From the NCBI RefSeq assembly GCF_964355755.1, contig NC_092673.1:6448001-6512000 (forward strand): a stretch of 64,000 bases of DNA, read 5' to 3'. The stretch is from Antedon mediterranea (lineage: Eukaryota; Animalia; Echinodermata). Each line of letters starts with the position of its first letter. The first letter of the stretch is position 1. The notes below the pieces were generated by a model, which saw only the letters and a list, made by a program, of their open reading frames with translations, was not told the origin of the DNA and ran no database searches. The translations under genes and the position numbers were made by a program. This document shows, piece by piece, positions 21,160 through 62,400 of this stretch.

Positions 21160-21421
21160 GATTCTGATATGTTCGTCTTAGAATTGTGATTTAAAAAAAT
21201 GAAAATTACGCTACGATTAAAGGATGTTTATAACAAATCTTGTGAGAAACATTTCAAGAAGCACATGTAAAATTGTCACACGGATTCTTTTTTATAATCA
21301 TAAAAAAGGTTATGACGATACGGTCGAGTGCACACCAGGTCAGGCACGTGTTTTTATAGAGGGCGACATAGTCATTTTCTATTATATCGAAGAGAATCCG
21401 TCCAATTGCACTCTTGATTTG

Positions 21422-27515: not shown

Positions 27516-29780
27516 TTTAATATGAACTGGTTGTTTAAATTCCTAGTTAATTAATAATCCTGTCAACACCCAATTTGTTATTTCAACAAGAGCCCTCGAT
27601 CAATCACTCACTCTCTCGGCACAAAAAAGTGGTAAATACACGTGGCATGAAATAGAGGGCGGCAGACAGGATTTTAAATCAATCATACGTGTTTCAAAAC
27701 GACTTACCGGTTTACCGTATTATGTATTACTGTACAGTATTATGTTTTGAAAAGTTAGTTAGCCCAACTGGTAAAAAGTATGTAGCCTATGATCTTTCAC
27801 ATGAATTTTCGCGGATATAGTACCAGTATGTCTCAATCACTGGAGGCCGTTTTGGAATCATAATTTGTTTGACCTATCTATCTATTTCCTTGTAAATTAA
27901 ATGCCTTTTTAATATTAATTATATTTTCACTAATTTCATTCAATCTCGATATTATCTCAAATAACTTGAAAAACTTATATATCTCAGTGTATTGCTAGGA
28001 TCACAAACAAGGCAGTGAGCATGAGTATTGGTTCCCTATGTTTAGACACAACTAATGTCATGCGGATGCAACCGAAGAGCTCAGTTACAAAGTAAAGTAG
28101 GACACTACAGCACTTTATCCAACAATTGTTAAATGTAGTGCGTTAACATAATTTTCTTTAAATATAATGTATGTCACTTAAAAATTGCAAGAATGCATGC
28201 ATTAAAAAAATAATCACAAATATTCACGTGTTACTTGCATGTGGCAAGCAAAGAGGGAGAACATGTCTTTTATAATTGATATTGTTTTTAATAATACAAG
28301 AACATATACAAATTATGTGTGTCGAATGTTTTTAGAGAAAAGAGAGAATATATAACGTAAATAAAATAAAAGAAAAAAAACACAGTAGGCTATTCAATTT
28401 AAAGAAATTGTTGTATTATTTAAAGAAAAATATCGTTCAAATTAATTATCATAAACAATTGCGTGATTCATATCGTCAGTTTAATTTTCGAGTAGGCTAT
28501 AAAACCAATAATGACATGCGAAAACGTAAGACAGGTTAAATATACATTTTCTAGTTTGTGGAAAATGATAATTAATAAAGTAAAGTAAAAGTCATAAAAA
28601 AGTAGAAAATATGGATCTTTTACTTACTTATGCATGATTTGATTTGACCTTATACATTGTTTTATTGGGTTAGAAACTTAATTGTTCCCCTTTTGGCTAC
28701 TAGATTGAACACACTCTCTAAACCTCATTGACTTATCATCTCCTACACTTACCTATTTTAATGTATTTTGTATTACCAACACTCAGGCTATAGTACAATG
28801 GAGCTGTTTTAACATTATCATTATCATCGAAGAGCAGAGGCCGGATTTATCGAACTTGCTTAGAATAAAAGAAATCGTCTTATGCTAACAACTATAGCAG
28901 TTTCACGAATAAGCCTATATTGCTTTGGCGGTTCTTACTATTTTAGTTAAGCAACAATATAAGACAATAAAATACCAACTCAGAAAACTTTTGTAAACTA
29001 AAATAAAACAAGTAGGGTTCTCTTCCCTGGTATATCATTATCTTTCTTTTCTCACTCTAAATGTGGTTGGAGAAAAAATGTAACTAGCTAACACCATACA
29101 TTCTCATTGCTACCATTTCCATACCGATCCGAGTATTTTCATTTAAGTTTCGAGGCAAATGTTATTTTATTAGAGTTATTAGAGTATTTCTTTTTAATAT
29201 ATTATTTTCTTTCTAAAGCCAAATATAAATTAATATTGTTCTTCTCTTGTAGATTTTCTTTAAATAACTAGAAACACAAATTCACAGAGATTCATACGGA
29301 AATTGTGCACGTTTTTGTTTATTAAAAGATTCACATTTATTGTATTGGCACATTATTAAAATAGGCATAAGATTAAAACTAGGTCCAGGGCCTAGACTAG
29401 GGCTACTTACTTCTATTAAAGAAAGCATAGGGACCGAGTGATTTTTATTCGGAATCGGAAGAATTACCGAGAAAGGGTCAAACCTAGCCCTTCCTAAAAT
29501 TGAGATCCTGCCGTTTCCTCTCCTGTTTTTTGCCATATTTATTATGTATTCCACTGTTAGCAGGTACATGTTAGGACATTTTGGTAGACTAAGCCCTTTT
29601 TGACAATTTAAAAATGAAACACTAGTAGGCCTACTTATTTTTTTTAGCATAGGCCTACTGATAAAATGATAGATGGAATTTCGAATACTGTATCCTGGCA
29701 ACCATGGAACATTTCGACCGCGTATATAGAACAAAAAGATGCATTTCGAACATGTGAACGCACACGCGCTCAAAATCATC

Positions 29781-29927: not shown

Positions 29928-30642
29928 GTAGGCCTAACTAGGCCTCCTAGTAGGCAGGCTTTTTAATGTTTTTAGGACTTTCTAAAAAACAAAGAGTTTG
30001 TTTTACCAATAATACATAGGCCTAGGCTAGGCTTAGTTTAGGTAGGCCTAGACTATAGCCTAGAGGCTATAGATAGGCTAGGCTACTCTAGCCTCTAGGC
30101 CTTAAATAAACTAACCTAAGGCTAAGCCTTTTATTTTAGTTTTAGTTAGACCATATCCTTTTCATTTAGGACCTACCTACTAGGCCTACCTAGGCTGAAC
30201 TACTACAACAATAGCCTAGTTACCATAAGCTAGCTAAATGCTACTTCTATTAAAATAGGTAGGCATTTACAGTAAGCTATGGCCGTAGGGCCTAGACTAC
30301 AGTAACTCTTTGAGTCTTGGTTCTCCCTGTAGTAGTAGTAGTAAGCCTCTAGGCCTAGTAGTAGTAGTAGTATCAGTACTAGTAGGTAGACAGCTTACGT
30401 AAGTTCTAACTAAGTACCACACACAAGACTAGCTTTAGTTGTAGACCTACCAAGCTAGCAGAGGAGCTTATTCTTGCAGTTGTGCTAAACAGCGCATAGC
30501 GACTATTTTGTATTTTGCGCTATATTAATTTAAAACCATTATTAAACCATTAACTATTATCGGTACTACTACTACTACTACTAGCCTATTTAAATTATTA
30601 TTAAATAATTAATGTGAATTATATATTTTTTCAATTAAGTAG

Positions 30643-32125
30643 ATCTCAACAAGATGCACACCAGCAAGCAAGAAGAAAGTCAGTATTTACAAGGATTTGG
30701 ACAGCTGTGCTTCATCTTCTTTGCATAAGAGGAATTGACGAATCATCGGATAGCAACTTAAGTTCGTCATCGTCATTATTATCATCATCATCACCATCTA
30801 TATTATTGCAACCAGCGGGCACAGTGTCGGCATCGCTGTCAGGGGTACAAGAAGTATCAGTACGACAGGTATCATCAAAGTCTCTATCAAAGTCATCAAG
30901 ATCACATTCGTCTATGTGGCCAATGTCATCCACATCGTTTGCGCTTTCTCCTAGCCAGATACTTACCACACCAGGTCTATCACCCGGGGAGGTGATTCTC
31001 CCAAGGCAACATGTTTGTAGCTCATCCTCATCATCTACCGCTCCGGTCCAGCGCATTTTTAGAAAACCAACATCAGAGTTATCACCCGGTGAGATACCAG
31101 AAAGGAAAGGTCTTTGTAGTGTGCCATCATCGTTGTCGTCACAATGGCCATTGTCACCTGCCAGTAGCTTCAATGGTTCTTCCCGTTCTTTGAAAAGTAA
31201 CACTACCACTTCAGCACCCATATCCGTCTTTAACGATAGAGATGCTACAACAAAACTTGCTGAAATTCTGCCGCCTGCTCGGTTATTAGATAGTTCAAGT
31301 GTAACCGACCTTTGTAATCCTGTACGCCTTGGACAGGGAAGTTTTGGTCGTGTTGACCTGATGTCATCCAATCTTTTGCCAGGCCACTATCACCTTGTCG
31401 CCGTCAAGACGGCTTTTTTGAACAATTACAGCAATCCTGATGAAGCATGGGGCAAGATGGTAGTAGAAGCGCGTGTTATGAAATTTTTAGACGATCTTCC
31501 ATCTGTTCCTCGAGTCTTTGGCGTCTTTCGCCAAGGTGACGTATGCTGCATGATACAGGAGTTTATCGGAAATACCTTCACCCTTTCCAGCACCACCTTC
31601 CTGGATGTATTGCTAACCGGGCAGCCGTCCTTGAGCGCGCTTGAATGTATCTCTATGACATCAGAGGTTGTCATTGCGCTCAACGACATGCACAAACGTG
31701 GGATTCTCCACAACGACGTAGCTGCGAGAAACATCCTGATCCACCACGCTGGAACCAGCTACAGAGCGAAGCTTACAGACTTCGGGATGGCATGCAGAGT
31801 ACAATATCCAAGAGCACATAGAGAGTTAACCTTTTCATCGTTGGACGAACTACTCCAATACAATCAGGATCATCCGGAGGTAGCACCAGAAAAATACCTT
31901 GACGGTGCTTGTGATTCTGTTAACGGTGACGTGTATTCCATCGGTTATGGTATACGTATTGTAGGAGTGGCAATTAGAAGCAGCGAGATGGTTGAACTTG
32001 GAAAGTCTTGTACATCTTTCGACGCAGAAGATCGACCATCTCTAGATTGGGTAATCAACATCTTGGACATCATTAAAGAAAATGAAAAGAGCAATCCAAC
32101 ATGCCGGGGTATCAATGGCCCTTAG
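30643..32125 (+). CDS. Protein kinase with intronless catalytic domain, Ser/Pro-rich N-terminus and HND catalytic loop; true start uncertain (splice acceptor at 30642, first in-frame ATG about 30914)
   Basis: LGQGSFG Gly-loop, VAVK, alphaC Glu (EARVM), HNDVAARN, DFG, APE, DVYSIG and DRPS motifs in ORF 30614-32125. Confidence 0.88.
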
Positions 32126-34955: not shown

Positions 34956-35987
34956 CTAACACCTACTATCGTGTGTTTTGTTACTCATTTGTAAAACTAA
35001 TTCGTCTGTAGTGTTAGTAGAGCGATTCCCAGTATCCTGAACACTAGAATCTTCAATCACCACTGTTTGGCGGAAACAACATGATTTTTCATTCGTGCAA
35101 CACCCGAACAATTCCGAAATTCCTTCTCGGAAATCCGGCAACCTTCGCCAATATATAACCGGATTCACCGCGGAGTTTAGCAATATCATTGCAACGCCAA
35201 TGTAGAAAACCAAACTCGACACTATACAACGATCCTCTTCCTCAAAGCCATAGTACATTGTGAACATAATGCGAAGAGATTCAATTGCCCATGGCAACCA
35301 GCAAATAGCGTAAACCACCACTATTACAACATACGCCCTTAACACAAGTTTTGTATACTTATAGTTACCTCCTCGGTTCAATCTAGCGGACATTCGTTTA
35401 TCATGTGAATGTATTTTTATAAATATTGAAAAGTAAAGTATTGAAATCCCAATCATTATTACAACAATGCACAGAGGACCAAGAGTGAAAAATATAACTC
35501 GATGTAGGATATAGTCATAGAACGAAATTGGTAAAAGAACTGATGACGTTATCAACCACATGATGACGGAAATGCTTAGAAGTTGACGCGTTGTTCCGAT
35601 GTGAGTTTTGCTACTGTTGGTGAATACGACGATCTTGAGAAATCGTTCGGCAGCGATTGCGAGGATCGTAAAACCCGAGACAATGCCGACAATCAGTCCG
35701 ATGCTCTCCATATAGGTTTTGTTGAAAATCACAATACAGGGGTAAATTATACCGGCCATTAAGTCCGTTAGTGCTAAGTTAAAGATAAGAATATTGCGGC
35801 GTTTATGCAGCCGCTTTACTTTGATGATTGCCGCCAGAATAATTGCATTTTCTACGATAGATAAGATGCATATCAAGAAGAAATAAATTGAAAAGATTGC
35901 CAAGCCTGTATTGCTGCTACCAAAGACACCGGATTCCATAATGTCAACAGGCTCCACTGAGCAGTTTATAACAGCAGTGCGATCCAT
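34956..35987 (-). CDS. Class A (rhodopsin-like) GPCR, S1P/LPA/cannabinoid/melanocortin (MECA)-like orphan, single coding exon
   Basis: Seven hydrophobic segments; TM1 ENAIIL, TM2 NLALTDLMAG, TM3 LAIAAERF (DRY variant), TM6 CWLP, TM7 NSAVNPVIY; N-terminal NCS sequon; short ECL1 and no TM3 Cys, as in MECA receptors. Confidence 0.9.
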   Translation of the reverse strand: MDRTAVINCSVEPVDIMESGVFGSSNTGLAIFSIYFFLICILSIVENAIILAAIIKVKRLHKRRNILIFNLALTDLMAGIIYPCIVIFNKTYMESIGLIVGIVSGFTILAIAAERFLKIVVFTNSSKTHIGTTRQLLSISVIMWLITSSVLLPISFYDYILHRVIFFTLGPLCIVVIMIGISILYFSIFIKIHSHDKRMSARLNRGGNYKYTKLVLRAYVVIVVVYAICWLPWAIESLRIMFTMYYGFEEEDRCIVSSLVFYIGVAMILLNSAVNPVIYWRRLPDFREGISELFGCCTNEKSCCFRQTVVIEDSSVQDTGNRSTNTTDELVLQMSNKTHDSRC

Positions 35988-37750
35988 CGTCTTGTCGAAT
36001 TATCTTCCTGTTGAATTGGCCTAAATAGATGATCGAAACATGATAATTAAAAAAACAGAAACTGATACAGCAATGCAACCCACAATTGCCTTTAACAAAA
36101 CATTCATTAGTTTACTTCAAGCAATGCAACCCACAATTCATTAGTTTACTTTATGTTTTAGTAATAATTAAAACACAATTAAAAAAAGCATACACTTTAC
36201 TTTATTGCCATAAAAAAAGTCTGAGAATATAACTGCTACATTCTGCAGTTATGAAATATTATCTACCTGATAACATGTATTACAAGTATTTACTACACTT
36301 AGACTTGTATCTCACTGACTTGCGGTAGTCAGTTAGATAGTATATCGTGAAAGCTGCAGAAATTAAAACGAATACTTATAAATATATTGTATCCAAACAA
36401 CTCACCAGATAGGCAAAAATGATAACCCTTCGGTTTTACAAATTAGAAAAGTTAAACTTTAATTGCATAGTTTTTTTGTTTAAGTCGAATGACCCACGTT
36501 AATCACGAAACTGTAAGAACTAATTAATTGCGAAAATATTTCTCTATCATTTTATAGATGTCCACGCCGGAAAATAGAATTAATCGGTGGATCACTGGTG
36601 TGCATGAAAAATCAAACCGCACACGATATGCCCTTCACAAATAGTTAAAGGATAAACTTTCATCATGTTCAAGGAACTTATTATATTACGACAGTATTAC
36701 TCATGATATACTGAAAGAGGCGCATCACTTTTAACAAAATATTAAAATTTAGCCTAATAATTCCAATGTTACTACACCTTACCAAACATTTAAAACAATG
36801 GTTTTATGCCATATTTTGTTCGTCTATTGGCTTTTACTTATAGTAATTGAAAGTATGATGAAACTTAAGTGAAAGTACGTGGTAGACCCACTTAACACAC
36901 ATAGCCTTGATGATGAGTGGTTTTACGTACGAACTGATGTCATGACTTACTAGCTTCCTAGAGGGATAGGCCTACACAGAATGTAGCTGGCAGTACACGT
37001 TCTAGTACTAGTGATGTTAAGCTAAACTACTGCTCGTTTACCGTCACTTGACCAAGAATCTGGAACAATTTACTAACTAGTTACATTAAACATTTGAATG
37101 ACTATAAACAGCAATACTTTTTATTTTAACTAATGCTATGAATGAAGAGTCGCTGATTCTGAGCTTATCATAAATGGGCGCTATAATGTTAATGTTAGCT
37201 CAACGAATAATAACGGCACTTATTAAATTAAATATCAGTTACATTGTCTCTTTAAAAAAAACAACAAATTGATAGCAACACTTTTTGTGTGTATTTCGAT
37301 TTTCTTTCAATTGATAATGACCCCAATGGGAACTAATTCTTCCTGTAAGGATTAATTTGGTCGCCAATAAAAACAAACATCTGATATTGAACATTTAACT
37401 AACCAGAGGCCTGTAGAATAGAATAATATTATACAATAACAAGTTTTGTTTTTGTCTTTTCTGTTTTTATCCTTGTACATTAAACTTCATATTTTTTTCC
37501 GGTTCAATAACTTTAATTTTTCACAACAACAACTCACGTCAGATTGATGATGATCATCCGGGTATTCCCTCTTTCATGAGTCATAACAGTTCAAGTTCAT
37601 GTATCGAATAAATGATTGGTCAAAATTATCGAGCGTGTTAATAACTAAACCTAATATAAGGTCATGTCCAGTTTTTAAATTATGAATGGGAAAGAAAGCC
37701 GAAGAAAATTTCATTTGGTTTTTTTAATGTCATAATAATGTTCAGAATTT

Positions 37751-38628
37751 AGGCCTAATGATGACGTGCATCTTTAATACACCTCACTGTGTATAATAAT
37801 AGCTCTTTTGACAGCAAGGATAGACAACAAAACTAAACACACACACAAAATATAACATGTAGACCTATTGTAATTTAAAACTATAAAATAGGCCTAATGA
37901 TGACGTGCATCTTTTATACACCTATCTGTGTATATTAATAGCATCATCCTGGTTAGTCTTTTGACAGCAAGGATAGACAACAAAACTAAACACACACACA
38001 AAATATAACATGTAGACCTATTGTAATTTAAAACTATGAAATAGGCCTAATGATGACGTGCATCTTTTATACACCTATCTGTGTATATTAATAGCATCAT
38101 CCTGGTTAGTCTTTTGACAGCAAGGATAGACAACAAAACTAAACACACACACAAAATATAACTTGTAGACCTATTGTAATTTAAAACTATAAAATAGGCC
38201 TGATGATGACGTGCATCTTTTATACACCTATCTGTGTATATTAATAGCATCATCCTGGTTAGTCTTTTGACAGCGAGGATATACACCAAAACAAAACACA
38301 CACACAAAATATGACTTGTAGGCCTAGTGTAGGCCTAATTTAAAACTATAAAATTAGGCCTAATGATGACGTACATCTTTTATGCACTTATCTTCGTAGA
38401 TTAATAGCAACATCCTGGTTAGTCTTTTGACAGCAAGGATATAGACAACAAAACTAAACACAAAACACACGCACAAAATATGACTTGTACTGTAATTTAA
38501 AACTATAAAATTAGGCCTAATGATGACGTGCATCTTTATGCACCTATCTGTGTAGATTAATAGCAACATCATGGTTAGTCTTTTGACAGCGAGGATAGAC
38601 ACCTAAACAAAACACACACACAAAACAT
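37751..38628. repeat. Tandem satellite, unit about 153 bp, six copies
   Basis: aggcct(aa)tgatgacgt starts at 37751, 37890, 38043, 38196, 38356 and 38513. Confidence 0.95.
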
Positions 38629-41600
38629 ATTACTCGGCTTGAATATTGTCTTGAATACAGAATGCAACAACGGATATTTATTACAAATACACATTCTTCA
38701 TTTTCATTGTTTAGATGGAAGGCATATCTTATAATATTAGACCTACCCTGAAATTAATTTCTAGGACTACTATGGTTACATCTTTTCACCTCACAGTTCA
38801 TCTCTTTTCACCTCACTGCATAATCATATGGTGATTATTGCATGACGCCAGCAAAATATCAAATTGCAAATTGTCTAGAATGAATTTACTATTCTGTGAT
38901 AATGTCCGCAAAGTCCATTGCTAAAAGTGTTAGGGTAATAAATGGGTTAAATTGAAACATAGATTCGCAAAATGTAGCACCAATTGCAGAACTGTGAGTC
39001 TGAAAAACTTTTTGAATTTACTTCATTTTACTAACTAGATGGTACGCGAGCGAAGCGAGCGTACCATCTAGGTCGTGCTCACAGATGGTTCTCGAATACA
39101 TAATAATTTCAGCGTTAAAGAACTGGCGATTTCAAATGTACGTACCGCAGGACAATAATACATGTCGTTTACAGGAACGAATAAATAGACACTGTGATTT
39201 ATGTACTCAACTAAAATTAGCACCCTGGGAATTACTTCCGAAAGAGAAACTTGTCACAAAATGAGACAAATTGTTTAAGTCAAATTTAAACAAACTTAAT
39301 TTGTGTTTTGTATGTAACATTAGGGTTGAGGGATGGGGAAGAGGATGGGTGCAAAGAAGAACAATTTTTAAATATATTCTTTATCTATTTAGTAACGAAA
39401 TATTAATTGTTTTCATGTTTTACAAATAATATACCACTATACACAGTAAAACATTGCGATTTAATACTTTGTTGAAACTATCACCGTCGATTGAAATACA
39501 GTACATATAACGATACATCACTACGACGTGTATATGTTTATATAATTTAAAACAATTTGTGAAAACCACCTTTATTCGAGCAAAATCATAAATTCGATTT
39601 AATGGTCAATAAATATTAAATTATCTAACTCAACTTAATTAGTAGGCATAATGGTTTTCAATTGTTTCTTAGAGCCAATTCATACTTAAGTTGGTTCCTA
39701 CCCTACCCTCCAAAGTTGTTCTGCGTTTAGGGCATGTGATGTACCGTAGGCCCATCCTCTACTGGTTTTACAACGCTACTCATGCCAGTGAGGGAAGGGT
39801 GGTGATGTGGGTGGTTTAACTGCAATAATAAAGATGTGTACATAATATACGGCGAGTGAAAGCGCTAGCTCATTATCTGTTTAAAAAAATGTATATCCAA
39901 CCTCTGCAGCACAGATTGAAATGGTTGGGTTGGTTGAAAAAAAAATGGATCGAATTATACAGTACTTGCCTTTACGACGCCTGAGGGAATAGACACTTGT
40001 GGAACAGAGATTGGAATGTTCCATTCATCGCAAATCAATACATTTGTATAAACGTATATTAAATCTATCAAAATAGTATAAAAAAAAAAATCGGCCTGTC
40101 TTCAACATTATGATGCTGTACTTGAGCTGTTCAACCGGTTTTCAGCCATTAAAAACAATTATCGTAGGAGGAGATAGGAAAATGCGAAGCATCCTCGTAT
40201 TATTGTCTGCGGGTATTTTTCAAGACGGACATCCATTAGACAGTGTATACCACGATCGAAAAACACCCCTATTTGGGGCAAATCGTTGAACCTAAATTCG
40301 TTTTAATCGTCAATAACTAATTATCGAAATCAATTTAATTAGTAAACAGGGTTACATCTGGTGGTTAAAATCAGTACCGAAAGTACGAACCAACTTTATA
40401 TACCATCGAGTAAACATTCTAGCAATAACGCACGATTTACCAAATTTTGCCCTTACGTAAATTTATATATAGATACATATAGGCCTAATTATAAAGACCG
40501 TATAATTTCTTGAATTCCAGAAAAAATCGTATAATCATTATTTTGGCTTCCTTAAAATTAGAAAATGAAACCTAACCATCAGTATCAATCTGTTCCTCAG
40601 GCATATTGTACTTGTTATTATCAATGCAAGGTTATATTTTGTATACACAACAACAGTTTGTATTATACATATTATGTATTGCGTGAGAAGTTTGATATGC
40701 GTGAATGATTATATATAAAATGTCAGGTACCTCTATTTCTATACTACCATTTATCGATTTGTATTTTTTAAAGGGTTTTTCTATTTTGGACGGACGACAC
40801 AATACATTTACTTACCTTATGTTCTCGTACATACAAGGGATAATATTCATACTGTATCATGATGCACTTTTTTTGCACATGACACTTGTTGATTGTGTTG
40901 ATTAAACGGATAGTCCAGCAGTATTCTTAAATAAATAAGAAAGGCTGTTCGTTAGGATACACATTTTTGCTACTACGCACATCCATGGGATATAGATTGT
41001 ACTAATGTTTAGAGTACATTTTAAACCCGTGCCGGGAGTTGGATTAATGAGGTCAACCAGGGTAATGGAAATGTTTCAAACTTCATTAAACCTGCCCAAG
41101 GTGTGTGGGAGCGGGGGCGTTAGGAGTTTGTTCATACTGTAGCCTACGTGGCACCAGTCACCACTCTAGAAGACGGTCTCTCTTAAATACCTGGTTATTG
41201 TACAAATAATTTATTTCAAATCTAACGACAAACCAATATATTTATTTATTGCGAAAAAACTTGGGGCGCGTTTATACAACACGCTATTACACGCATATTC
41301 TACACGCCTACGAGAAGTGTGTTGTATAACAACAAAGAGATTCCGTGTAATGAGATTTTAATTGCAAAAAAGGCTACTTGGCTGAATCCTAAAATTTGGT
41401 GGATTCCCGGTCACCGTTACCGTGTTGGAAGTGTCCTCAGGGTATATTTTGACCTCTCGTTAAAACAGGTCGTAATATCAATCATGTCATGCGACGTCTA
41501 ACAAAATTGGGCCCATTTATTGCTGCTTCGCTGCCAGCAATCATCCTCCTACCACGTCTTACGCCTAGCCTGGTAGGGCCAACTCGTAGTGGTAGTAGGC

Positions 41601-48200: not shown

Positions 48201-49574
48201 GTACTTTCGAGTCGAGGCATGATGTGGGAATACAAAAAGAAACAAATAAACAAAAACCTTCATTAGGATATGAATTCTTCTTATTCAGACAATGTACAAT
48301 GCGCACTTAAAGTGACTATGATGTTTATTTCAACGGAAAGACAGACTAAAAATCACCCAGCAATAAACCGTAATAACAATAATTAGGCATATGTTGGAAC
48401 AAAAATAGTTTTTGATTTGAAAATCAAATTTACCACTTATCTTTAGCATGAGTTAACAGAGAAATAATCTAGTATTGAATGTTTCCCGAAGACGTGCAAC
48501 GTAAGCAGTAGACTAACCAACTGTTACAATCTCCACGTCCTGGATTTTGGTTCAGGACTTGATTATTTTAATTGATGTTTTATTGGGGAGGTGTTCCGGG
48601 CATTTATTCAAATAAACACCATCCTAATTGGTATAATTAATACATTATTCCGCGACACAGTGAGCCGTTTTGGCCTAAGAAGGAAGACGTTTTAGACGGC
48701 TTGCAACATGGGCAGGGTCCTGACGGGACACAGATAGCGCACAGTATACATAAATTCCTGGCAGCTATCGGGGTTTCATTCGATTTCAAACAAAAGACAT
48801 CAATGACATCAATTCTCTCGATGTCATTTTATATAATTATTTCCCACAATTTACTCCTATGTTTTATGAATATATTTAATTTGATCTTTATGTAATTACT
48901 ATACTTTCACATGCGCGGTCCGAAAACAAACAAAAAACCAAAATGGCTATCGCCACCAAACACCAACGGCCAACTTAGTTGCATGGCGGAGATTTGTACC
49001 GAAGTTTTTGCATTGTGCTCGCCAATGTCAGAATTAACCATAATTTATATATAGATTAATTTAGCAAAAAACCCATTGGCCAACAGACAATTTGATTATT
49101 TTTCTGCTTTAACTTACAGTTTTTCAGATAAATAATTTGTTTCGATCCAATGGTTGGTCCAAGTGGATACCGTAACTATTATGTGACATTAAATTGGCAT
49201 TACTGTATATCGTTAGTTTCTTAAATCGAACATATAATTACTATAATAGTTCAGCAGTATCCTCTATTGTATGACCATTGTCAATGCAATAGTTGTTATT
49301 ATAATGTACCTACCCTAGAAGTAGGAATTTGATATGCGTCAATGGATATAATTTAAGGTATGATTTTATTTTTCATACGTGACATCAGAAAACCAAGTCA
49401 ATTGTTTTTTATTACCATTCTGTCGCCAAAGTAATGACCTGATGGGGCAATAAAAAAATTATTATAGGGGTTGCGGAAAGGTGGTTGCTATAATGATGGA
49501 TCAATCGAAACAATGCAATGAGTATAGTCTAAATACAATTTTTTTTTTGCAGACTGAATACATCATTTTGAAAA

Positions 49575-52500
49575 ATGGCAAATCTTAAAAATGAGTTTGA
49601 CTACTTGAAATTTGAACTCAGTAAATATTATACTGGTGAACGCTACTCGTGGTTGAAATTTTGCCTTTTCGATAATTTAAGTCTATCAGACCTTACCGAT
49701 AAAGAGTCAACTGGACATACTTTATTCAATGAACTTGAAAGAATACATGTAGTCACAGCTAATGACGTCAACCTACTCTTGGAGATTACTGCGCTAACAG
49801 GTTCAGATGATGCCAGAAAACGTGTAAATCAGTATATTGAAGATAACAACATTCAAAACACAGACAAACACAAGTTGACAACTTATCGTAAACAACTCTT
49901 TAGGGCTGTGAGAGAAGCTGAACCAGTTGCATTAAATAAGGTTACTGCTATGTATAAACTAACTCATCTTAATTTTACCAACCTTTGGGATGTAATATTT
50001 CACCTTGAAACCAACGGAATTTTACCAACCGAAATAGACAAGTTTGGAAGTCTACTTGGAAAACGCGCAGAGAAAGAACTACTAAGTACCGGTAGGCCAC
50101 TGTAAATGTTGTTTTTTTGATTGATAGAATATTTTGTAATATAAAATTGTGAATCTCACACACGAATTGTGTTAACATCATGTGCAACAGATTGCATTAA
50201 GGCATACATTGGTGTTACACCATCGTGATACGTGCGAATGGTTTACCAATCACAAATAAAATGTATTTATAACAGTCCATCGAACGCTTATTATAATTTA
50301 AACATTACCGTATTTGTAAGTCAATGCAATAATTATGGTTAGAATAACGTTTTTATACATTGCCATAACCGCACAACATTACCACATAGATCCACAACAT
50401 TCAAAATAATACCACTAGAATATTCACTAGATATTCCAATAACCTAACGAAAGATTGGAATATTTGATAAATTTAGTCAAAAAACAAAAAACGGTTCGTG
50501 CAACAAACATTTCTTTAGTTAGTAATAATAGTGATGACGATAAAAGTGGCCAAACCTGTCAAAAGTAAAAAAGAAAACAACTGAATATTTGTATAGTAAT
50601 GACGACATCAATAAGCTTCTCACATACAACTATTTAAATTCAGCAGGCTTGCATGGATGTGCCAACGCATTCCGACGTCGCTCCACCATATACCTGCCAT
50701 AAAAACGGTGGGACACGTCGAAATCATATGTATGCGGTTTTCACCTACACATTTACTTAATCGTTCTTATAACGTAATACTGATTAAGTATGGCAAGTAT
50801 TACAGTAGGTAGGGCTCCAATAAAAAACGCTTTAAAGTAAATAAATTAACATAAACACACTTTTTTTCTTTATTCAGATAAAAAAACAAAAAGGGTTCGT
50901 GAAGCAAACATTTCTTCAGGTAGTAATATTGATGACGACGAGATAAGTGACCAAACTTGTCAAAAGAAAAGGAAAATAACTGAAGATTCTTATAGTGATG
51001 ACGACATGAATGCCCAAGCATCTACATCAGCTCATACAGGCCATAAACTAAAGAGAAGACTAAAATACAAATCTGACAAAGGTACAATTGATGACAATTA
51101 CTATATAATTGAAATTAAGGGATCTGCACAATACAATATGTTATTTTTAAATGACGTCGTAATTTTTGATAAGCCAAAATTGTTAATTAATTAATCCTAT
51201 CTAAAATTTATCCGCTTTCATATTAATTTGACGTGCACGTGTGTAAATATTTCACGTTTACAGTTTAGAAAAGGTACGCGCGATGCAAAAAGTTTAATAC
51301 TTTTGAAATGTTCAATATAGCCTGAAACGTGTTCTATAAATTTAGCTTAAGCATTTCCAACAAATGTTTGTCCAGAATGTTTCAATTTCATTTAAAGGAC
51401 ACCAGTCATCTTCTTTACAATAATTAACTTCCACATTTATCTAGTCCACATTGGTCGCTTTCGGACACCGACCTCTTGTACCAACCTGTATCTTCTCGTC
51501 TTCCTTTTACTTTCCATTTCCTTTAAAAAAGAAGGTCCGCATAATCTCAAGATGGGATGAGTCTAGTGTGAATCATTGTCACCATTTTAAAGTTTGTTTA
51601 ATTAATTAATATCGCAATGTTTACAGTTACGAATTGTGTTGTGTGAATATCGTTTACTCTTTATACATTTTAATTAATTTCTAGAAAATGTTGATGAAGA
51701 TAGAGCACCGAAGTCAAAGAAGATAGTTTCGAGAGAAGGTAAAACCATATTTTTGGGCAGGTACATTTTTTCAAATGCGTTATAGCAAGTCAAAGAACAT
51801 TTTTATTTAAATAACGTAAATTATTAAATAATACCTTTCTATAATTACAATTGTTTTTTCTTATATTATAATTGAAAACAAATAGACATGGTAATTTTAA
51901 ATAGGACATTAAAGAAGTCTGTGCACATATGACCTTGTGTAAAAAAGCAACGTTTAGTGGCATGTTTAATACTTTTTCATTAATTTATTTGATTGATTGT
52001 CTTGTTTATATATTATAGAAAAAATCAAAGATTATCTTCTTGATAGACAAAGATTGGTGTGCGGCAATAACAATAAGAAATTTACATCATCAATAATGAA
52101 TAACAATTCTTATTTCAACATTGAAATATTCACTGAATTGAAATTGCTGAAAGAAGATGAGATAAATGGCAGTCAACCAACTACATTACCAACAATGTTA
52201 GATGATATCAAATCCATGCCAGCATGTAGAGTTCTTATATCTGGTGATGCTGGGATTGGTAAAACAACATTATTAAGGTACTTGGCATACAGTTCAACTC
52301 TTGGAAAACCAATTGCATTTGAAGGTAAAATTGTATTTTTCTTGAATGTTAAAGATTTAGAAAAAGGGCAAGACATCTTTGATTTGATTGAAACACAACT
52401 TGATATGAACGATTTTACTAGAAAGACAAAGCTTCCAAGAGATGATCCATTGTTAATTCAAAGATTTATTGATCAAAATGACAGCAAGATTGTGTTGTTA

Positions 52501-55500
52501 TTAGATGGATTGGATGAAATCAGTTTTGAGAATAAAAGCTTGATAAATCTTTTCACAAAGAACACATTGGGAAATAGTGTTGTGCTGCTAACATCCCGAT
52601 CAGATAACTTAAAATGTTTAGATAAATTTAAAATGATGTGTGACTTGCATGTTAGAGTGAGTGGATTTGATAAAAATAGCATTAGAAAATACATTGACAA
52701 ATTTTTTAATCATTTTGGAAAAGCCGAATTTGGAAAATCACTTAGGCGGAAATTGGAGCTTGACGAGAAAAAAACTACAATTGACCGCAGTCATTCAGAA
52801 GCATCTGTATTGTGTAAAAATCCATTATTACTACTTTCAATTTGTCTTTCCTGGATAGAAAACAGACGTCTTCCTTATAGTGAGTCTGATCTGTTCAAAG
52901 AATTTTTTCTTTGCCTATTTAACCAATTCAATAAAACTAAAAAAAAAAAGTTTACTAAATTTGAAGATGCTCCATCAGAATATGTAAATGCTATGCTTTT
53001 GTTAGGGAAGTGTATGTGTAATTCTGTCTTAACGTTAGCTAAACTTTCAATAAGCAAACATGATTTGGAAGCATCGACAGAAGACCAAGGGTTGATTGAT
53101 CTAGCCTTAAAACTTGGATTTGTTTCTAAAATGTCACCGATTTCAAAAAAACCCACAAGTGATATGTACATACCTCCGCACAACTTGATAGGGGAATCAT
53201 TGGTGGGATTCTACTTATACAAACTTTATAACAATGAAACGTCGAATGAATGCACAAAGCATGAAAGACAGTTACTTAAGCCATTGAATGAAAATGAATG
53301 GAAGGTAATAAGAGAACGTAGGAGATTTAAGAAGGTAAATATGTTTGTAGTAGGGTATCTTGGTGGAGATGCTGGTAAATTTTTGAGATATTGGGTTACA
53401 AATAAATTTTCAACATATCGTTCTTTAGGTATTTACTTAAACTGTGTTAGAAAATCCGATCTGAAAGTAGTGAATACATTCTTGGAACCATACACAAACA
53501 GCGCGACGTTAAACCACACTCATGTATCTAACTCTTTAAAACAAGGTATTTCCTACTTTAATCGAAACTCTGAAGTAGCTTTAGGCGAAGATTTTACAAA
53601 TCTTATCAGGCAATTTTATAGCATGGATTTGAGCAAACTTGATTTGAGAACTTTTTTAAATGAATTATCAACATATGATAATCCTCAAAAAGGAAAGATT
53701 CTGGCCCACATTGTTTACTTTTTCACCTTTCAACTTGACTTAAGTAATTGTGGCATATCAGGTGATGTAATGAATGATATGATTAGAGAGTGTTCTAAAA
53801 TGGGTGGTGAACTGGAATTATACAATCTTAAAATCAGAAATAATAATTTGAGCAACATTAAAGCTACATTAATGAATTCTTTGATTAGGATGTCTCCTTT
53901 TTGTCGTCTATTTGATATAAGTAATTGTAATCTATCAGGTCAAGTAATGAATGATATCATTAGGTGTGATAGAGAAGCTGTGCTGAACATAGTCATCCTC
54001 AGAATCAATGACAACAACCTAAGTGACATTGATGGTACATTACTGGGTAGTTTCTTGAGTAAGTTCCCTAGGTTGATTTCACTTCAAATGAGGGATTGTA
54101 AAATTTCAGCTGACGTAATGAATGACATGATAAGAGTGTGTGCAGGAAAAAAATTAAAGTTACAAGTGTTTGATATTAGGGGTAATGATTTACGTGGCAT
54201 TAATGGCTCCTCACTTGGTACTTTCTTGAGTAAATCCCCTAAACTACTCAAACTTCATATGGGTAGTTGCAAATTATCAGGTACCGTAATGAATGACATG
54301 ATCAGAGTGTATGCAGAAGATAAGTTAGAATTACAAGACATTTATATGTGGAATAACGATTTAAGTGGCATTAACGGTTCCTCACTTGGTACTTTCTTGA
54401 GTAAATGTCCTAAACTACTCAAACTTCATATGGGTAGTTGCAAATTATCAGGTACCGTAATGAATGAAATGATCAGAGTGTATGCAGGCGATAAGTTAGA
54501 ATTACAAGAGTTTATTATTAGTGATAATGATATCAGTGACATTAATGGCTCCTCACTTGGTACTTTCTTGAGTAAATCTCCTAAACTACTCAAACTTCAT
54601 ATGAATACTTGCAAATTATCAGGTACCGTAATGAATGACATGATCAGTGTGTATGCAGAAGATAAGTTAGAATTACAAGAAATTTATATGTGTAATAACG
54701 ATTTAAGTGGCATTAATGGTTCCTCACTTGGTACTTTCTTGAGTAAATCTCCTAAACTACTCAAACTTGGCTTGCCTACTTGCAAATTATCAGGTACCAT
54801 AATGAATGAAATGATCAGTGTGTATGCAGAAGATAAGTTAGAATTACAAGAGTTTATTATTAGTGCTAACGATTTAAGTGGCATTAACGGTTCCTCACTT
54901 GGTACTTTCTTGAGTAAATGTCCTAAACTACTCAAACTTCATATGGGTAGTTGCAAATTATCAGGTACCGTAATGAATGAAATGATCAGAGTGTATGCAG
55001 GCGATAAGTTAGAATTACAAGAGTTTATTATTAGTGATAATGATATCAGTGACATTAATGGCTCCTCACTTGGTACTTTCTTGAGTAAATCTCCTAAACT
55101 ACTCAAACTTCATATGAATACTTGCAAATTATCAGGTACCGTAATGAATGACATGATCAGTGTGTATGCAGAAGATAAGTTAGAATTACAAGAAATTTAT
55201 ATGTGTAATAACGATTTAAGTGGCATTAATGGTTCCTCACTTGGTACTTTCTTGAGTAAATCTCCTAAACTACTCAAACTTGGCTTGCCTACTTGCAAAT
55301 TATCAGGTACCATAATGAATGAAATGATCAGTGTGTATGCAGAAGATAAGTTAGAATTACAAGAGTTTATTATTAGTGCTAACGATTTAAGTGGCATTAA
55401 TGGTTCCTCACTTGGTACTTTCTTCAGTAAATGTCCTAAACTACTCAAACTTCATATGGGTAGTTGCAAATTATCAGGTACCGTAATGAATGAAATGATC

Positions 55501-58500
55501 AGCGTGTATTCAGGAGATAAGTTAGAATTACAAGAGTTTATTATTAATGCTAACGATTTAAGTGACATTAATGGTTCCTCACTTGGTACTTTCTTGAGTA
55601 AATCTCCTAAACTACTCAAACTTGGCTTGCATACTTGCAAATTATCAGGTTCCGTATTGAATGACATGATCAGTGTGTATGCAGAAGATAAGTTAGAATT
55701 ACAAGAAATTTATATTTGGAATAATGATTTGAGTGGCATTAATGGTTCCTCACTTGGTACTTTCTTGAGTAAATCTCCTAAACTACTCAAACTTCATATG
55801 GATACTTGCAAATTATCAGGTACCATAATGAATGAAATGATCAGAGTGTATGCAGGAGATAAGTTAGAATTACAAGAGTTTATTATTAATGCTAACGATT
55901 TAAGTGACATTAATGGTTCCTCACTTGGTACTTTCTTGAGTAAATCTCCTAAACTACTCAAACTTGGCTTGAATACTTGCAAATTATCAGGTACCATAAT
56001 GAATGACATGATCAGTGTGTATGCAGAAGATAAGTTAGAATTACAAGAGATTTATATTTGGAATAATGATTTGAGTGGCATTAATGGTTCCTTACTTGGT
56101 ACTTTCTTGAGTAAATCTCCTAAACTACTCAAACTTCATATAAATACTTGCAAATTATCAGGTACCGTAATGAATGACATGATCAGAGTGTATGCAGGAG
56201 ATAAGTTAGATTTACAAGAGTTTATTATTAGTGGTAATGATTTAAGTGACATTAATGGTTCCTCACTTGGTACTTTCTTGAGTAAATGTCCTAAACTACT
56301 CAAACTTCATATGGGTAGTTGCAAATTATCAGGTACCTTAATGAATGAAATGATCAGAGTGTATGCAGGAGATTTGTTAGAATTACAAGAGTTTATGATT
56401 AGTGCTAACGATTTAAGTGGCATTAATGGTTCCTCACTTGGTACTTTCTTGAGTAAATCTCCTAAACTATTCAAACTTGGCTTGCATACTTGCAAATTAT
56501 CAGGTTCCGTATTGAATGACATGATCAGAGTGTATGCAGAAGATAAGTTAGAATTACAAGCAATTTATATTTCGAATAATGATTTAAGTGGCATTAATGG
56601 CTCCTTACTTGGCACTTTCTTGAGTAAATCTCCTAAACTAATCAAACTGCATATGAATACTTGCAAATTATCAGGTACCGTAATGAATGAAATGATCAGA
56701 GTGTATGCAGGAGATATGTTAGAATTACAAGATTTTATTATTAGTGATAATGATATTAGTGACATTGATGGCTCCTTACTTGGCACTTTCTTGAGTAAAT
56801 CTCCTAAACTAATCAAACTGCATATGAATACTTGCAAATTATCAGGTACCGTAATGAATGAAATGATCAGAGTATATGAAGGAGATATGTTACAATTACA
56901 ATATTTTAGTATTAGTAATAATGATATTAGTGACATTGATGGCTCCTTACTTGGCACGTTCTTGAGTAAATCTCCTAAACTAATCAAACTGCATATGAAT
57001 ACTTGCAAATTATCAGGTACCGTAATGAATGAAATGATCAGAGTATATGAAGGAGATGTGTTAGAATTACAAGATTTTATTATTAGTGATAATGATATTA
57101 GTGACATTGATGGCTCCTTACTTGGCACTTTCTTGAGTAAATCTCCTAAACTAATCAAACTGCATATGAATACTTGCAAATTATCAGGTACCGTAATGAA
57201 TGAAATGATCAGAGTATATGAAGGAGATATGTTACAATTACAATATTTTAGTATTAGTAATAATGATATTAGTGACATTGATGGCTCCTTACTTGGCACG
57301 TTCTTGAGTAAATCTCCTAAACTAATCAAACTGCATATGAATACTTGCAAATTATCAGGTACCGTACTGAATGAAATGATCAGAGTATATGAAGGAGATG
57401 TGTCAGAATTACAAGAAATTCATATTTGGAATAATGATTTAAGTGACATTAATGGCTCCTTACTTGGCACTTTCTTGAGTAAATCTCCTAAACTAATCAA
57501 ACTGCATATGAATACTTGCAAATTATCAGGTACCGTAATGAATGAAATGATCAGAGTGTATGCAGGAGATATGTTAGAATTACAAGAATTTATTATTAGT
57601 GATAATGATATTAGTGACATTGATGGCTCCTTACTTGGTACTTTTCTGAGTAAATCGCCTAAAGTGTTGAAACTTGGCTTGAGTACTTGCAAACTATCAG
57701 GTAATGTAATGAATGAAATGATCAGAGGGTATACAGGAGATATGTTAGAATTACAATATTTTAGTATTAGTAATAATGATATCAGTGACATTAATGGCTC
57801 CTTACTTGGTACTTTCTTAAGTCAATCTCCTAAACTACTCAAATTGTATATGAATACTTGCAAATTATCAGGTAATGTAATGAATGAAATGATCAGAGTA
57901 TATGAAGGAGATGTGTTAGAATTACAAGAATTTATTATTAGTGATAATGATATCAGTGACATTGATGGCTCCTTACTTGGCACTTTCTTGAGTAAATCTC
58001 CTAAACTAATCCAACTGCATATGAGTACTTGCAAATTATCAGGTACCGTAATGAATGAAATGATCAGAGTGTATGCAGGAGATATGTTAGAATTACAAGA
58101 ATTTATTATTAGTTATAATGATATTAGTGACATTGATGGCTCCTTACTTGGTACTTTTCTGAGTAAATCGCCTAAATTGTTGAAACTTGGCTTGAGTACT
58201 TGCAAACTATCAGGTAATGTAATGAATGAAATGATCAGAGGGTATACAGGAGATATGTTAGAATTACAATATTTTAGTATTAGTAATAATGATATCAGTG
58301 ACATTGATGGCTCCTTACTTGGCACTTTTCTGAGTAAATCACCTAAATTGTTGAAACTTGGCTTGAGTACTTGCAAGCTATCAGGTAATGTAATGAATGA
58401 AATGATCAGGGTGTATACAGGAGATATGTTACAATTACAATATTTTAGTATTAGTAATAATGATATCAGTGACATTAATGGCTCCTTACTTGGCACTTTC

Positions 58501-59463
58501 TTGAGTAAATCTCCTAAACTAATCAAATTGTATATGAATACTTGCAAATTATCAGGTACCGTAATGAATGAAATGATCAGAGTGTATGCAGGAGATATGT
58601 TAGAATTACAAGAATTTATTATTAGTGATAATGATATTAGTGACATTGATGGCTCCTTACTTGGCACTTTCTTGAGTAAATCTCCTAAACTAATCCAACT
58701 GTATATGAGTACTTGCAAATTATCAGGTACCGTAATGAATGAAATGATCAGAGTGTATGCAGGAGATATGTTAGAATTACAAGAATTTATTATTAGTGAT
58801 AATGATATTAGTGACATTGATGGCTCCTTACTTGGCACTTTCTTGAGTAAATCTCCTAAACTAATCCAACTGTATATGAGTACTTGCAAATTATCAGGTA
58901 CCGTAATGAATGAAATGATCAGAGTGTATGCAGGAGATATGTTAGAATTACAAGAATTTATTATTAGTGATAATGATATTAGTGACATTGATGGCTCCTT
59001 ACTTGGTACTTTTCTGAGTAAATCGCCTAAATTGTTGAAACTTAACCTGAATAATTGCAAACTATCAGGTAATGTAATGAATGAAATGATTAGTGTGTAT
59101 GCAGGAGATAAGTTAGAATTACAAGAGTTTAATATTGGTAATAATGATATCAGTGACATTAATAGTAATTTACTTGGTACTTTCTTGAGTAAATTTCCTA
59201 AACTACTAAAACTTGGCTTGCATTCTTGCAAATTGTCAGGTAATGAAATGAATGAAATGATTAGAGTATATGAAGGAGATACGTTAGAACTACAAGAGCT
59301 TTATATTAGTAATAATGATATCAGTGACATTGATGTATCCTTACTTGATACTTTCTTAAGTAGATTGCTTAAACTGCGTAAAGTGTACATGAACAATTGT
59401 TCATTATCAAAAAGTGTGACCATTGGTTTGTGTTCAGTGAGGGAAATAGAATTCTTTACATGA
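49575..59463 (+). CDS. NLR immune receptor: tandem death-fold (DED-like) domains, basic/acidic linker, NACHT, giant LRR array. Exons 49575-50091, 50878-51081, 51685-51738, 52019-59463 (all introns phase 1)
   Basis: DED-like exon (LKFCLFD...TLFNELERIHVVTANDVNLLLEI...YRKQLFRAV...DVIFHLE); Walker A GDAGIGKT; Walker B VLLLDGLDE; sensor LLTSR; CKNPLLL; ribonuclease-inhibitor-like 28/29-aa alternating LRRs; exons splice in frame. Confidence 0.93.
50478..50625 (+). pseudogene. Decayed duplicate of NLR exon 2
   Basis: Aligns to 50881-51020 (ggttcgtg..aaacatttct..tagtaat..gatgacga..caaac.tgtcaaaag..aactgaa..tatagt.atgacgacat) but carries an in-frame TAA. Confidence 0.8.
53740..59410 (+). repeat. Coding tandem repeat, 171-bp (57-aa) unit, about 34 copies, of which 30 are near-identical
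   Basis: The CKLSG Cys codon occurs at 54268 and 59227, exactly 29 x 171 bp apart; the period extends to 53926, 54097 and 59398 without net indels. Confidence 0.97.
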
Positions 59464-62400
59464 TAAGTATATTATACATTTTTTACTCTGTTTTTTGTAG
59501 TGATTATTTTTAATTTCTTCTTATTATTGCTTACTATGTATGTAAAGCTGAGGGCTGTATTGTGAGCTAAGTATTAGTTTGAACCAAAAATAGATAGTAG
59601 ACACCCATCTGTCATTTAAAGAAAACAATCTGAAAAACTTTATTTAATGATTCTGTAAAAATAAACCAAAATGCATCAAATCAAATACATCATCAAATTG
59701 AGAGTAACGTTGGAATATAGCTGATCAGTGTCAAATAAAACCCGCAGTCAAATCAAAATCCATTTATATGAGCGACGTATTGAATAAACAACACTACCTC
59801 ACGCCATGTAGGCCTATCTTATACTCTTACTGAGGACTTTCTAAGAATTGAATTGTTTACGTTTTGTATCTTGTTTTGTTATTTGTAGGTCTATTGCACA
59901 TGTTTTCTCTCAATTTCTGGAGCCTCTTTCAAAAAATTATTATAGAAATTGAAATTATTCGGACCTTAAAGAAGGCAAGCTATTAAGTCACTTAATTTTT
60001 ATTGTTATGACATTAAATAAAAATGTGACTTAATAAAATAATAAAATACTGTAAATTATAAAGCTTGACTTTGTTCATACAGTTCAAGTTCTCTAAACAA
60101 TGTACTTATAAAAAGCTGTAACTATTGTTTGTTATTTGTAATTCAAATTAAATAATAGTAGGCCATCGTTTTTTCTTCAATTTTCATTGTTAAAGACAAA
60201 TATCTGTTTATGAAGTATAAGCTGTAATATGCATATTAATAGCACATTGTTGATTGTTAACACATTCCACATTATTTAAGACAACCTTGAACGATTAAAT
60301 ATTATTATATTATGATATAGTTTATTTCAATTACATGTAAGATGATATTATGTTTTATTCTCACATATAACTTGCGTACCACGCGTGCTGACATTAATGT
60401 GTTCGCCAAATGCTTACAACAGATTTTTACCGTATATCTTAAGGTACTGTAGTTTGAGGAAAATGTTAATGTATTGTTCTTTTGTCGCACGAACATTCAC
60501 TTAAATAATGACATAATCCTAAAAATGAAACAATGAAATTAAGAATAAGCATGTAATGAATGACAATGAATTTATTTATAGACATTACAGAGTATAATTC
60601 GAAGTCTTTAAAACAATTCAGTAGTAGATACAAATTAGATACTTCGTTTCTTAGGAATTTATGGTTGTGTACCGCAAACAATATTAACAAGATAATTTAT
60701 CATTTAATCTGTAGAGCATATTATAATATATGTGTATCATTAAAACGTATTAGACTTATAGAATTTGGATTGTAAATTCAATGAAAATTACTAAGGTTTG
60801 TGTATTTAGCTTAAATTAATTATAGTGTCGATGGTCATACCGGATTGTTTGTGTACATTAGTTTTAATTAGTATACTGTAGTTTACATCAATTATTATTG
60901 TTTATCAGGGAAGAGTAAAATTGAGAGTTTACTAATTCAATAAAATGATTTAAACATAATACATGATTGACTACAGTTGTATTTGTTATTTGTACTTCAT
61001 AGACAAACACTGACAACATTATTATCCTAATTTATACCAAAGAAAATTATCAGACTTGACAGAATGACATCTCTCAATAATTCCAAATGCGTGCATCCTA
61101 CCAGGCAGCCAGACAAAGCACTATCCTTCCACACCTAAAAGACAGAACATTACACTCTCATTATTCTCTCAAATAAACGTTGACGATCTGGAGATGATGA
61201 GGATGATATGACGATGATGATAACGATGAAAATGACGATATCAACGAAGGTGGTGTATTCACTGTGGTAATGAAATCATAAAAAAGGCAAAATGAAACCT
61301 CATGACTACAACCAACGAAGATGATGACGCTAGTAACACTCCGTTATGCGTGAGTAATCAAAGAATGATGTATTGCATAAACAGGCGTAATAAATAGAGA
61401 GAAAGATTTATAATTATGTGTTGATTATACGAGTACGGATTATAGACCAGTGTACGACTTCATGTCACAAGCCAGAGATGTGTACGCAAATAAAAGTACA
61501 ATATAACTGATTGTTGTTGTTTTGTACATCATATATATAACGAACACGGTTGATGACAAAGATGATAATGGCGATCATTTACAGTGATGCCGCATGTCGA
61601 ATAACTGTGTTGAATTGAAATAAGTAACTAACCAAAAGTATAGTATTTATATGATGACATGACAATGAGAACGATAGTTCTGATTAACAAAATATAAAAC
61701 CAGAAAAATGTATACTAATTATTAGTGATATCAGGGAGTTTTTCTAACCACAACGATGAATATGCTGGATCGATTGCACATGCACTTTTTGATTGGATAG
61801 TCTTTTATGATTAGGAGGATGATAAATGAAAAATATTCAATATGATGACGCTGATCGTGCGACTAGATGAGACTGGAGTTTTGTGAGGTTAGAGTGCGGA
61901 TGATGATCCGGTGTAAACTACTAGGCCTATATATAGGTTTGTGATGATTGAACATCATATGATGAGGAGGATTTTGAAAATAAGGATAATAATAAATGTA
62001 AGCTTAGTAATAAAGACACACTTTAATAGGTCGTTTTGCAGTTTTATAAAGTTATTGATTTAGAGTAAAACAAAAAAGTAAATTTATCCAAAACCTGTTT
62101 GGAGGACAATTTGTTTTTGCTTTAAATTACAGTTTTTCAGGTAAATAAAAATATTCGGGAGGACCAGGGATTTGTCAATTTTAATTAGATGTTCGGCTGC
62201 CCAAAACATCACACAACAGATTACTTTTTAGGTCTTAAAAGCAAAATGTTGGTATTTTGGGATTGTTACTTTTTTGTATGTTTTCATGTTTATTCCCGAG
62301 TATTCTTTAAAAAACTTTGAAAGTTGGCTGCTGCCCTCTATCAAATTAAAATCACGATGTTTTTGTTTGTGTGTGAGACACAAGTGTCAGAAGGATCGGA

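Follow-up and report, generated by a model that had tools for sequence, protein, structure and literature searches.

A spliced crinoid NLR gene with an expanded, homogenised and recombined single-exon array of leucine-rich repeats

The gene and the layout of its repeat array

The window analysed here, the whole 64,000-nucleotide stretch of Antedon mediterranea contig NC_092673.1 from 6,448,001 to 6,512,000 on the forward strand, contains a gene for a nucleotide-binding, leucine-rich-repeat receptor (NLR), judged so from its domains, whose leucine-rich repeats (LRRs) form one long, homogenised and recombined array; all positions below are those of the window. The open frame that holds the array runs from stop to stop between 51997 and 59463 (+; 2488 aa) and is free of internal stops or frameshifts. 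An initial annotation, made from the sequence alone, had given the coordinates 53740..59463; the array does lie there, but the gene reaches upstream through three more coding exons, one of them for a predicted tandem death effector domain (DED). Joined, the four coding exons (Table 1) encode 2739 aa with only one stop, the terminal one. For comparison we used several runs: X1 matches the window; X5 is another sample of the same species, and RNA only by guess; X6 and X9 come from a related species, organism B. Exon boundaries were set by GT/AG ends and reading frame, guided by X9 contig 25, in which 49652-50088, 50875-51079, 54 further letters and 52017-52483 are spliced together. The putative exon 3 was placed by its length, which equals that of the 54 letters left unplaced between exons 2 and 4 in this contig. 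The spliced contig indicates that the gene is transcribed in organism B.

The NACHT domain scored 65 bits against PF05729 (cutoff 26.7), and Pfam LRR_4 was detected in repeats of the ribonuclease-inhibitor (RI) type; with both found, the initial assignment to the NLRs was borne out. The Pfam match of exon 1 to the DED was weak (E=1.4e-4) and under the gathering score; its AlphaFold model (pLDDT 93.6) had the caspase-8 tandem DED as best fold match (TM 0.72), and a sequence search of the PDB with this exon gave no match. Judged by sequence and predicted fold, the gene thus has the make-up of an NLR: a NACHT domain, a C-terminal LRR solenoid and an N-terminal death-fold effector, which X9 contig 25 of organism B places in the same transcript. 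Between that contig and the window the DED exon differs at 84 of 437 bases (49652-50088), exon 2 at only 8 of 205 and exon 4 at 10 of 467, which suggests, from the sequences, exchange of effector exons or very divergent DED alleles. One listed DED variant is common to X5 and X9. Intron 1 holds a degenerate partial copy of exon 2 (50479-50612), 83% identical over 134 bp.

The array consists of 33 Cys-anchored units (53749-59397), the first of 59 aa and units 2-33 of exactly 57 aa or 171 bp, with zero indels. It comprises 34 A-type and 33 B-type repeats, all inside one exon; the total of 67 LRRs falls within the 65-68 estimated initially, the frame is uninterrupted, as the claim of a single-exon array implied, and all 12 A-strand and all 11 B-strand variants listed at that time were present. 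Core units 4-31 have a mean identity of 87.8%, and 24 of the 28 are unique; among them 13 B-strand and 15 A-strand variants occur in 22 different same-unit B+A pairs. Divergence among core units grows with distance, with a 5'-to-3' gradient in the scaffold (Mantel rho 0.45, p=2e-4), and the pairwise proportion of synonymous differences in helices and loops is 0.13. The scaffold is thus not nearly identical at synonymous sites, contrary to what had been read from the sequence.

The structure prediction proposed with that first reading was made from a single sequence, for a 628-aa piece covering the first ten units (pLDDT 79, pTM 0.72), and gave an alpha/beta RI-like solenoid. In the modelled unit beta-strands lie at codons 24-28 and 52-56 and helices at codons 5-15 and 37-45. 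Its best fold match was ribonuclease inhibitor; oocyte-lattice complexes, NLRP14 complexes and NLRC4 also matched. Because the modelled fold is of the RI type, alternating strand residues are predicted to face the concave side.

Table 1. Exons, domains and array segments of the NLR gene
Feature	Position	Strand	Evidence or remark
Coding exon 1: predicted tandem DED, 172 aa	49575..50091	+	fold and weak Pfam DED match; GT donor next
Coding exon 2: charged linker	50878..51081	+	AG/GT ends, frame maintained; X9 contig 25 links it with exons 1 and 4
Coding exon 3: putative 54-nt linker exon	51685..51738	+	AG/GT ends; length match
Coding exon 4, 7445 nt: NACHT, helical domains, entire LRR array	52019..59463	+	open frame
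NACHT domain	52231..52710	+	PF05729, E=7e-18, above gathering score
Walker A motif, intact-looking	52246-52272	+	read from translation
Walker B motif, intact-looking	52489-52518	+	read from translation
Divergent N-terminal LRRs, units 1-3	53728..54267	+	nt differences from other units: 61-71 for unit 2, 22-50 for unit 3
Homogenised core of 28 171-bp units; strand cassettes vary, at codons 24-29 and 51-57	54268..59055	+	
Recent three-unit block duplication	54354..55400	+	534 bp exact match, offset 513
Recent two-unit duplication	56717..57366	+	308 bp exact match, offset 342
Recent one-unit duplication	58539..59006	+	297 bp exact match, offset 171
Divergent last units 32 and 33, C-terminal cap and stop codon	59056..59463	+	

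Recombination among units and variation on the strands

The pairwise homoplasy index (PHI) test gave p=5e-5 on nucleotides, on codon states, on collapsed sites and in shifted register, and incompatibility between sites increased with distance. In 200 simulations without recombination, with the observed site rates kept, the largest local drop in incompatibility was −0.06 versus −0.19 observed, and p<=0.05 was reached in 8.5% of them. The four-gamete test was failed by 186 of 561 biallelic site pairs (Rm=9). Synonymous-only sites numbered seven, too few for PHI, and 6 of their 21 pairs were incompatible. A search for breakpoints, likewise proposed at the outset, identified 9 of the 24 unique units as perfect single-breakpoint chimeras after Bonferroni correction over 12,144 tests, with p-values that assume adjacent changes to be independent and are therefore optimistic; eight of the nine break in codons 32-43, the scaffold between the B and A strands. 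As the breaks fall there, the strand cassettes have been reassorted into their many B+A pairs. Recombination among array units is strongly supported: PHI, the four-gamete test, the chimeric units and the exact block duplications all agree with the reshuffling that had been proposed.

Ten concave positions per 57-codon unit had been chosen beforehand from the LxxLxLxx motif. By minimum counts, 31 of 61.5 nonsynonymous changes fall in these 10 of the 57 codons (permutation p=5e-6), so that variation is concentrated on the strands, as had been claimed for a ligand-binding face, but is not confined to them. The ratio of nonsynonymous to synonymous changes was 1.8-2.3 at concave positions; the strand core had about 0.2, helices and loops 0.4-0.5. 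The ten concave positions had 3.1 nonsynonymous changes per codon, 25 other positions with polar or small residues 0.68 (p=2e-4), and replacements at the former were more radical (mean BLOSUM62 −0.88 versus +0.35). Likelihood estimates of dN/dS (omega) were 1.36-1.54 at concave positions versus 0.29-0.33 elsewhere (difference p<=1.2e-8); both these and the site models come from GY94-type fits of our own, made on FastTree trees whose branch lengths were scaled, and are approximate. The contrast between the concave positions and the rest is certain. The dN/dS comparison that the initial annotation had called for thus came out at 1.4-2.3 for the concave positions versus 0.2-0.5 elsewhere, but not significantly above 1, and positive selection on the concave positions is suggested by the sequence. 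Note that the power of the selection tests is low, with only about 28 synonymous changes.

The crinoid family and other samples

Close protein matches to the window gene were all crinoid, 30 from Antedon mediterranea and 31 from Anneissia japonica (61 proteins, isoforms and partial models included), and at most 51% identical to it over the searched region; the window product itself was absent among the listed database matches of 30-4332 aa. In a NACHT tree of 57 sequences, each with at least 300 aligned residues, the window gene formed one clade (support 0.99) with P0004 (12 units) and P0002, an Antedon mediterranea protein of 3951 aa whose 56 units (about 112 LRRs) include identical block repeats of 7 and 5 units. 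Several Anneissia branches also carry long arrays, up to 26 units. Among profile-detected units (32 in the window gene), with proteins of fewer than four units left out, the nearest neighbour lay within the same gene for 31 of 32 in the window, 11 of 12 in P0004, 47 of 56 in P0002 and 231 of 359 over all proteins; homogenisation has thus proceeded gene by gene, in agreement with the initial claim for the window gene. Essentially no exact strand cassettes were common to the window gene and other family proteins (one B cassette, with P0006), and exchange between database paralogues is therefore not supported. For concave variability 18 matches were taken, of which P0012-P0016 were dropped (fewer than five usable units) and P0017-P0019 yielded no units; an excess was found in 9 of the 10 testable arrays, and protein-level PHI gave p<0.05 in 6 of 9. 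Several members of the crinoid family have grown their own homogenised arrays, the longest of 56 units, and these vary on the same face.

The N-termini of P0020, P0024, P0027, P0022 and P0056 vary: some appear by eye to be non-DED and TIR-like, DED blocks are repeated, and one carries PF02338. This variation, as read from the sequences, points to swapping of effector domains within the family. P0017 and P0018, of 2361 and 3535 aa, are NACHT proteins that have long arrays of 28/56-aa LRRs and large internal block duplications. We take them, from their appearance, to be sponge-like; on that presumption they suggest the same design in another animal lineage.

Comparison with other samples was by contigs only, none of which covers the whole array, and contig depth is a soft measure; bins without cover (9 of 30 in X5, 11 of 30 in X6 and, in X1, 4 of 30 at 97%) were not counted as evidence. 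X1 showed zero differences from the window flanks over 2456, 2320 and 475 bases. In all eight listed X1 array pieces the depth relative to the flanks was at least the window copy number: four 5' pieces came close to that number, and four 3' pieces exceeded it, with 3.4-12 times the depth of the flanks where the window has 1-4 exact copies. The X1 contig on the three-unit duplication had about twice the depth of a single-copy unit, and one X1 contig has a base at 57448 that the window lacks. The X1 depths argue against an over-expanded assembly and hint at further copies. In X5 the NACHT region differed from the window by 22 of 1418 bases, the bin of the first intron was uncovered, and one contig joined a unit-23-type helix to a strand cassette found in the window only in unit 22. 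The flanks of X6 diverge by about 2-4%. One of its contigs, 356 bases long, passes in register from unit 2 to unit-12/13-type sequence that lies 1710 bases, or 10 units, further along, and a cassette with one or two copies in the window reaches about 12 times the depth of the flanks. Array content may therefore differ in organism B, with fast turnover, and the X5 and X6 joins may represent alleles or close paralogues. Variation in length or order among individuals of the species is hinted at by short contigs.

Known systems, proposed mechanism and neighbouring genes

The comparisons with published systems that follow rest on excerpts of the papers cited. Lamprey variable lymphocyte receptors (VLRs) start from an incomplete germline gene that is finished from flanking donor cassettes. 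Somatic assembly of the VLR type was rejected for the window gene: its germline frame is complete, and a tblastn search of the window with five family proteins gave no LRR or NACHT pieces except within 49500-59500. Vertebrate NLRPs have far fewer modules than the 33 of the crinoid array, and these are not known to be homogenised. NLRP3 and other vertebrate NLRPs, as well as ribonuclease inhibitor, share with the crinoid gene the 57-aa (28+29) two-LRR module of 171 bp (PMC6642158) and an RI-like fold, and the initial comparison with 171-bp NLRP exons was correct (PMC6642158). The NLRP modules, however, lie one per exon and are varied by alternative splicing (PMC6642158), whereas the crinoid array, all in one exon, lacks the arrangement of one 171-bp exon per LRR pair.

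NLRs of high internal conservation (HIC) are defined by repeats that exceed 85% identity across 100 aa or more (PMC4986451). In the crinoid array 27 of the 32 profile-detected units have a twin of at least 85%, exact blocks reach 297-534 bp, and the concerted evolution and repeat shuffling characteristic of HIC NLRs are both found. Fungal HIC NLRs (Podospora het-e/het-d/het-r NWD) likewise combine a NACHT with near-identical repeats in concerted evolution, have gain, loss and shuffling of repeats ascribed to unequal crossing-over, and have a small number of hypervariable positions in each repeat, which lie on the binding surface (PMC4986451; PMC13449251). They differ in that their repeats, in the excerpted account, are WD40, ANK or TPR and not LRRs (PMC4986451), and in that length polymorphism and positive selection, both only hinted at here, are reported there as demonstrated; the crinoid gene in turn has a predicted tandem DED effector and breakpoints inside the two-LRR unit. 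HIC NLRs occur also in animals, plants and bacteria, according to a 2026 survey of ANK, TPR, WD40 and LRR proteins (PMC13449251), and single-exon NACHT+LRR genes have been reported from sponge clade C, Lottia, Capitella and Nematostella (PMC3879445), so that presenting the locus as an animal counterpart of the fungal system had overstated its novelty.

Soybean Rps11 and related giant NLRs were also enlarged by tandem LRR duplication through unequal recombination, but they are plant NB-ARC proteins, with resistance proven, whose LRR regions are highly divergent instead of forming a homogenised array of fixed-length units (PMC8571336). Ectocarpus genes for LRR-ROCO and NB-ARC-TPR proteins have shuffled repeats, diversifying selection and a proposed change of ligand specificity, and somatic recombination has been hypothesised for them; they belong to a brown alga, have one repeat per exon and are not NACHT-LRR genes (PMC3341825). 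Lineage-specific NLR families with death-fold N-termini, as here, are known from sponge clade C (PMC3879445), sea urchin and amphioxus (PMC2858798) and zebrafish (NLR-B30.2; PMC4852459). Some zebrafish groups have more than 20 LRRs and gene conversion, but their LRRs are spread over separate exons and, in the published description, not particularly variable (PMC4852459). Homogenised arrays with reassorted concave cassettes are not described for sponge, sea urchin, amphioxus or zebrafish NLRs in the excerpts of these reports (PMC3879445; PMC2858798; PMC4852459), and a full-text literature search, judged by the entries returned and the openings of abstracts and with subscription papers outside its reach, found no description of crinoid NLR arrays. 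Concerted evolution with cassette reassortment in an animal LRR-type NLR, common to part of a crinoid family, is well supported. The locus bears on the open question of how long-lived invertebrates without adaptive immunity diversify their receptors: it takes the fungal route, with scaffold homogenised and binding cassettes recombined, on the same 57-aa LRR module, which in vertebrate NLRPs is divided among exons, and does so in a deuterostome family where arrays have expanded several times independently. Since the array fits one 5.7-kb amplicon, allele diversity, mutation rate and somatic versus germline change can be read directly by long reads. The array is also a natural library of predicted RI-type LRR binding faces on a single scaffold.

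The structure of the gene, its type of fold, the duplications and recombination, and the clustering of radical changes at strand positions have been observed; on that basis we consider it probable, though well short of assured, that this spliced crinoid NLR, with its expanded, homogenised and in-register recombined single-exon array, is an innate sensor that shifts its specificity by germline repeat shuffling and signals through its DED. We propose that misaligned crossover or gene conversion between 171-bp units reshuffles the array; since the array has no introns, whole and half units are exchangeable in frame anywhere in the scaffold. The conserved scaffold would carry the reassorted strand cassettes on the predicted concave face, where a ligand would be bound; selection would maintain cassette diversity, and germline shuffling would alter or broaden specificity. 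By analogy with known NLRs, NACHT oligomerisation would be followed by DED-DED signalling via a caspase-8-like DED partner, leading to cell death or inflammation. Several points weigh against this proposal. The concave positions account for only half of the nonsynonymous changes, others falling for example at codons 6, 16, 19 and 21; concave omega was not significantly above 1 (likelihood-ratio test p=0.13-0.21); the site models did not reject neutrality on either tree set (M1a/M2a p=0.24, 0.63; M8a/M8 p=0.16, 0.33); and count tests were borderline (p=0.06, or p=0.03 against the non-strand synonymous rate). Most family arrays are short (median 4 units among the 30 Antedon proteins), P0007 has neither the concave excess nor a recombination signal, and the short contigs of X5 and X6 could derive from paralogues instead of alleles.

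Neutral turnover of a tandem repeat, in which the scaffold is structurally constrained, the concave residues are simply unconstrained and no selection favours new specificities, is an unlikely explanation, albeit one to be taken seriously. It fits site models that do not reject an omega at or below 1 and a concave omega compatible with 1, and any long tandem repeat is expected to show duplications and chimeras. However, the concave positions vary about 4.5 times as much as other polar or small ones, variation falls on the same face in those 9 of 10 homologous arrays, the frame is unbroken over 5.7 kb of repeats, and every point estimate of concave omega exceeds 1. Less probable again, in our judgement, is a diversified receptor that does not sense microbes but is used to recognise self/non-self or symbionts, acts as guard of a host protein or forms a large scaffold like the maternal oocyte-lattice NLRPs. 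The fold matches to oocyte-lattice and NLRP14 complexes besides NLRC4 would suit such a role, as would the work of characterised fungal analogues in allorecognition (PMC13449251, in the excerpted part); by comparison, the modelled caspase-8-like tandem DED suggests death or inflammatory signalling, a large fast-turnover family is typical of immune receptors, and a pure scaffold is not expected to vary its concave face.

That the long array is an assembly artefact, with over-expanded repeats, seems to us very improbable. Coverage by no single contig and the X1 base missing from the window would be in keeping with it, but most core units are unique, the depth of every listed X1 piece accounts for at least the window copy number, and database homologues reach 56 units. 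Beyond germline shuffling, an anticipatory single-exon LRR system in crinoids can be imagined, in which frequent rearrangement, perhaps in somatic immune cells as well, would give each animal or cell its own cassette order wired to a caspase-8-type death signal; we regard this as a long shot. The extra depth of 3' units and the variant base in X1 are compatible with it; a second allele, another locus or collapsed assembly would be simpler.

Elsewhere in the window, an intronless protein-kinase frame of 506 aa (30605-32125, +) has a long Ser-rich N-terminal part and is GC-richer than its surroundings. On the − strand lie a LOTUS-domain gene (20443-21177), a His-rich ZIP zinc transporter (26550-27542) and a G-protein-coupled receptor resembling sphingosine-1-phosphate receptors (34956-35999). 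A non-coding 153-bp tandem repeat occupies 37804-38629 in 5.3 copies.

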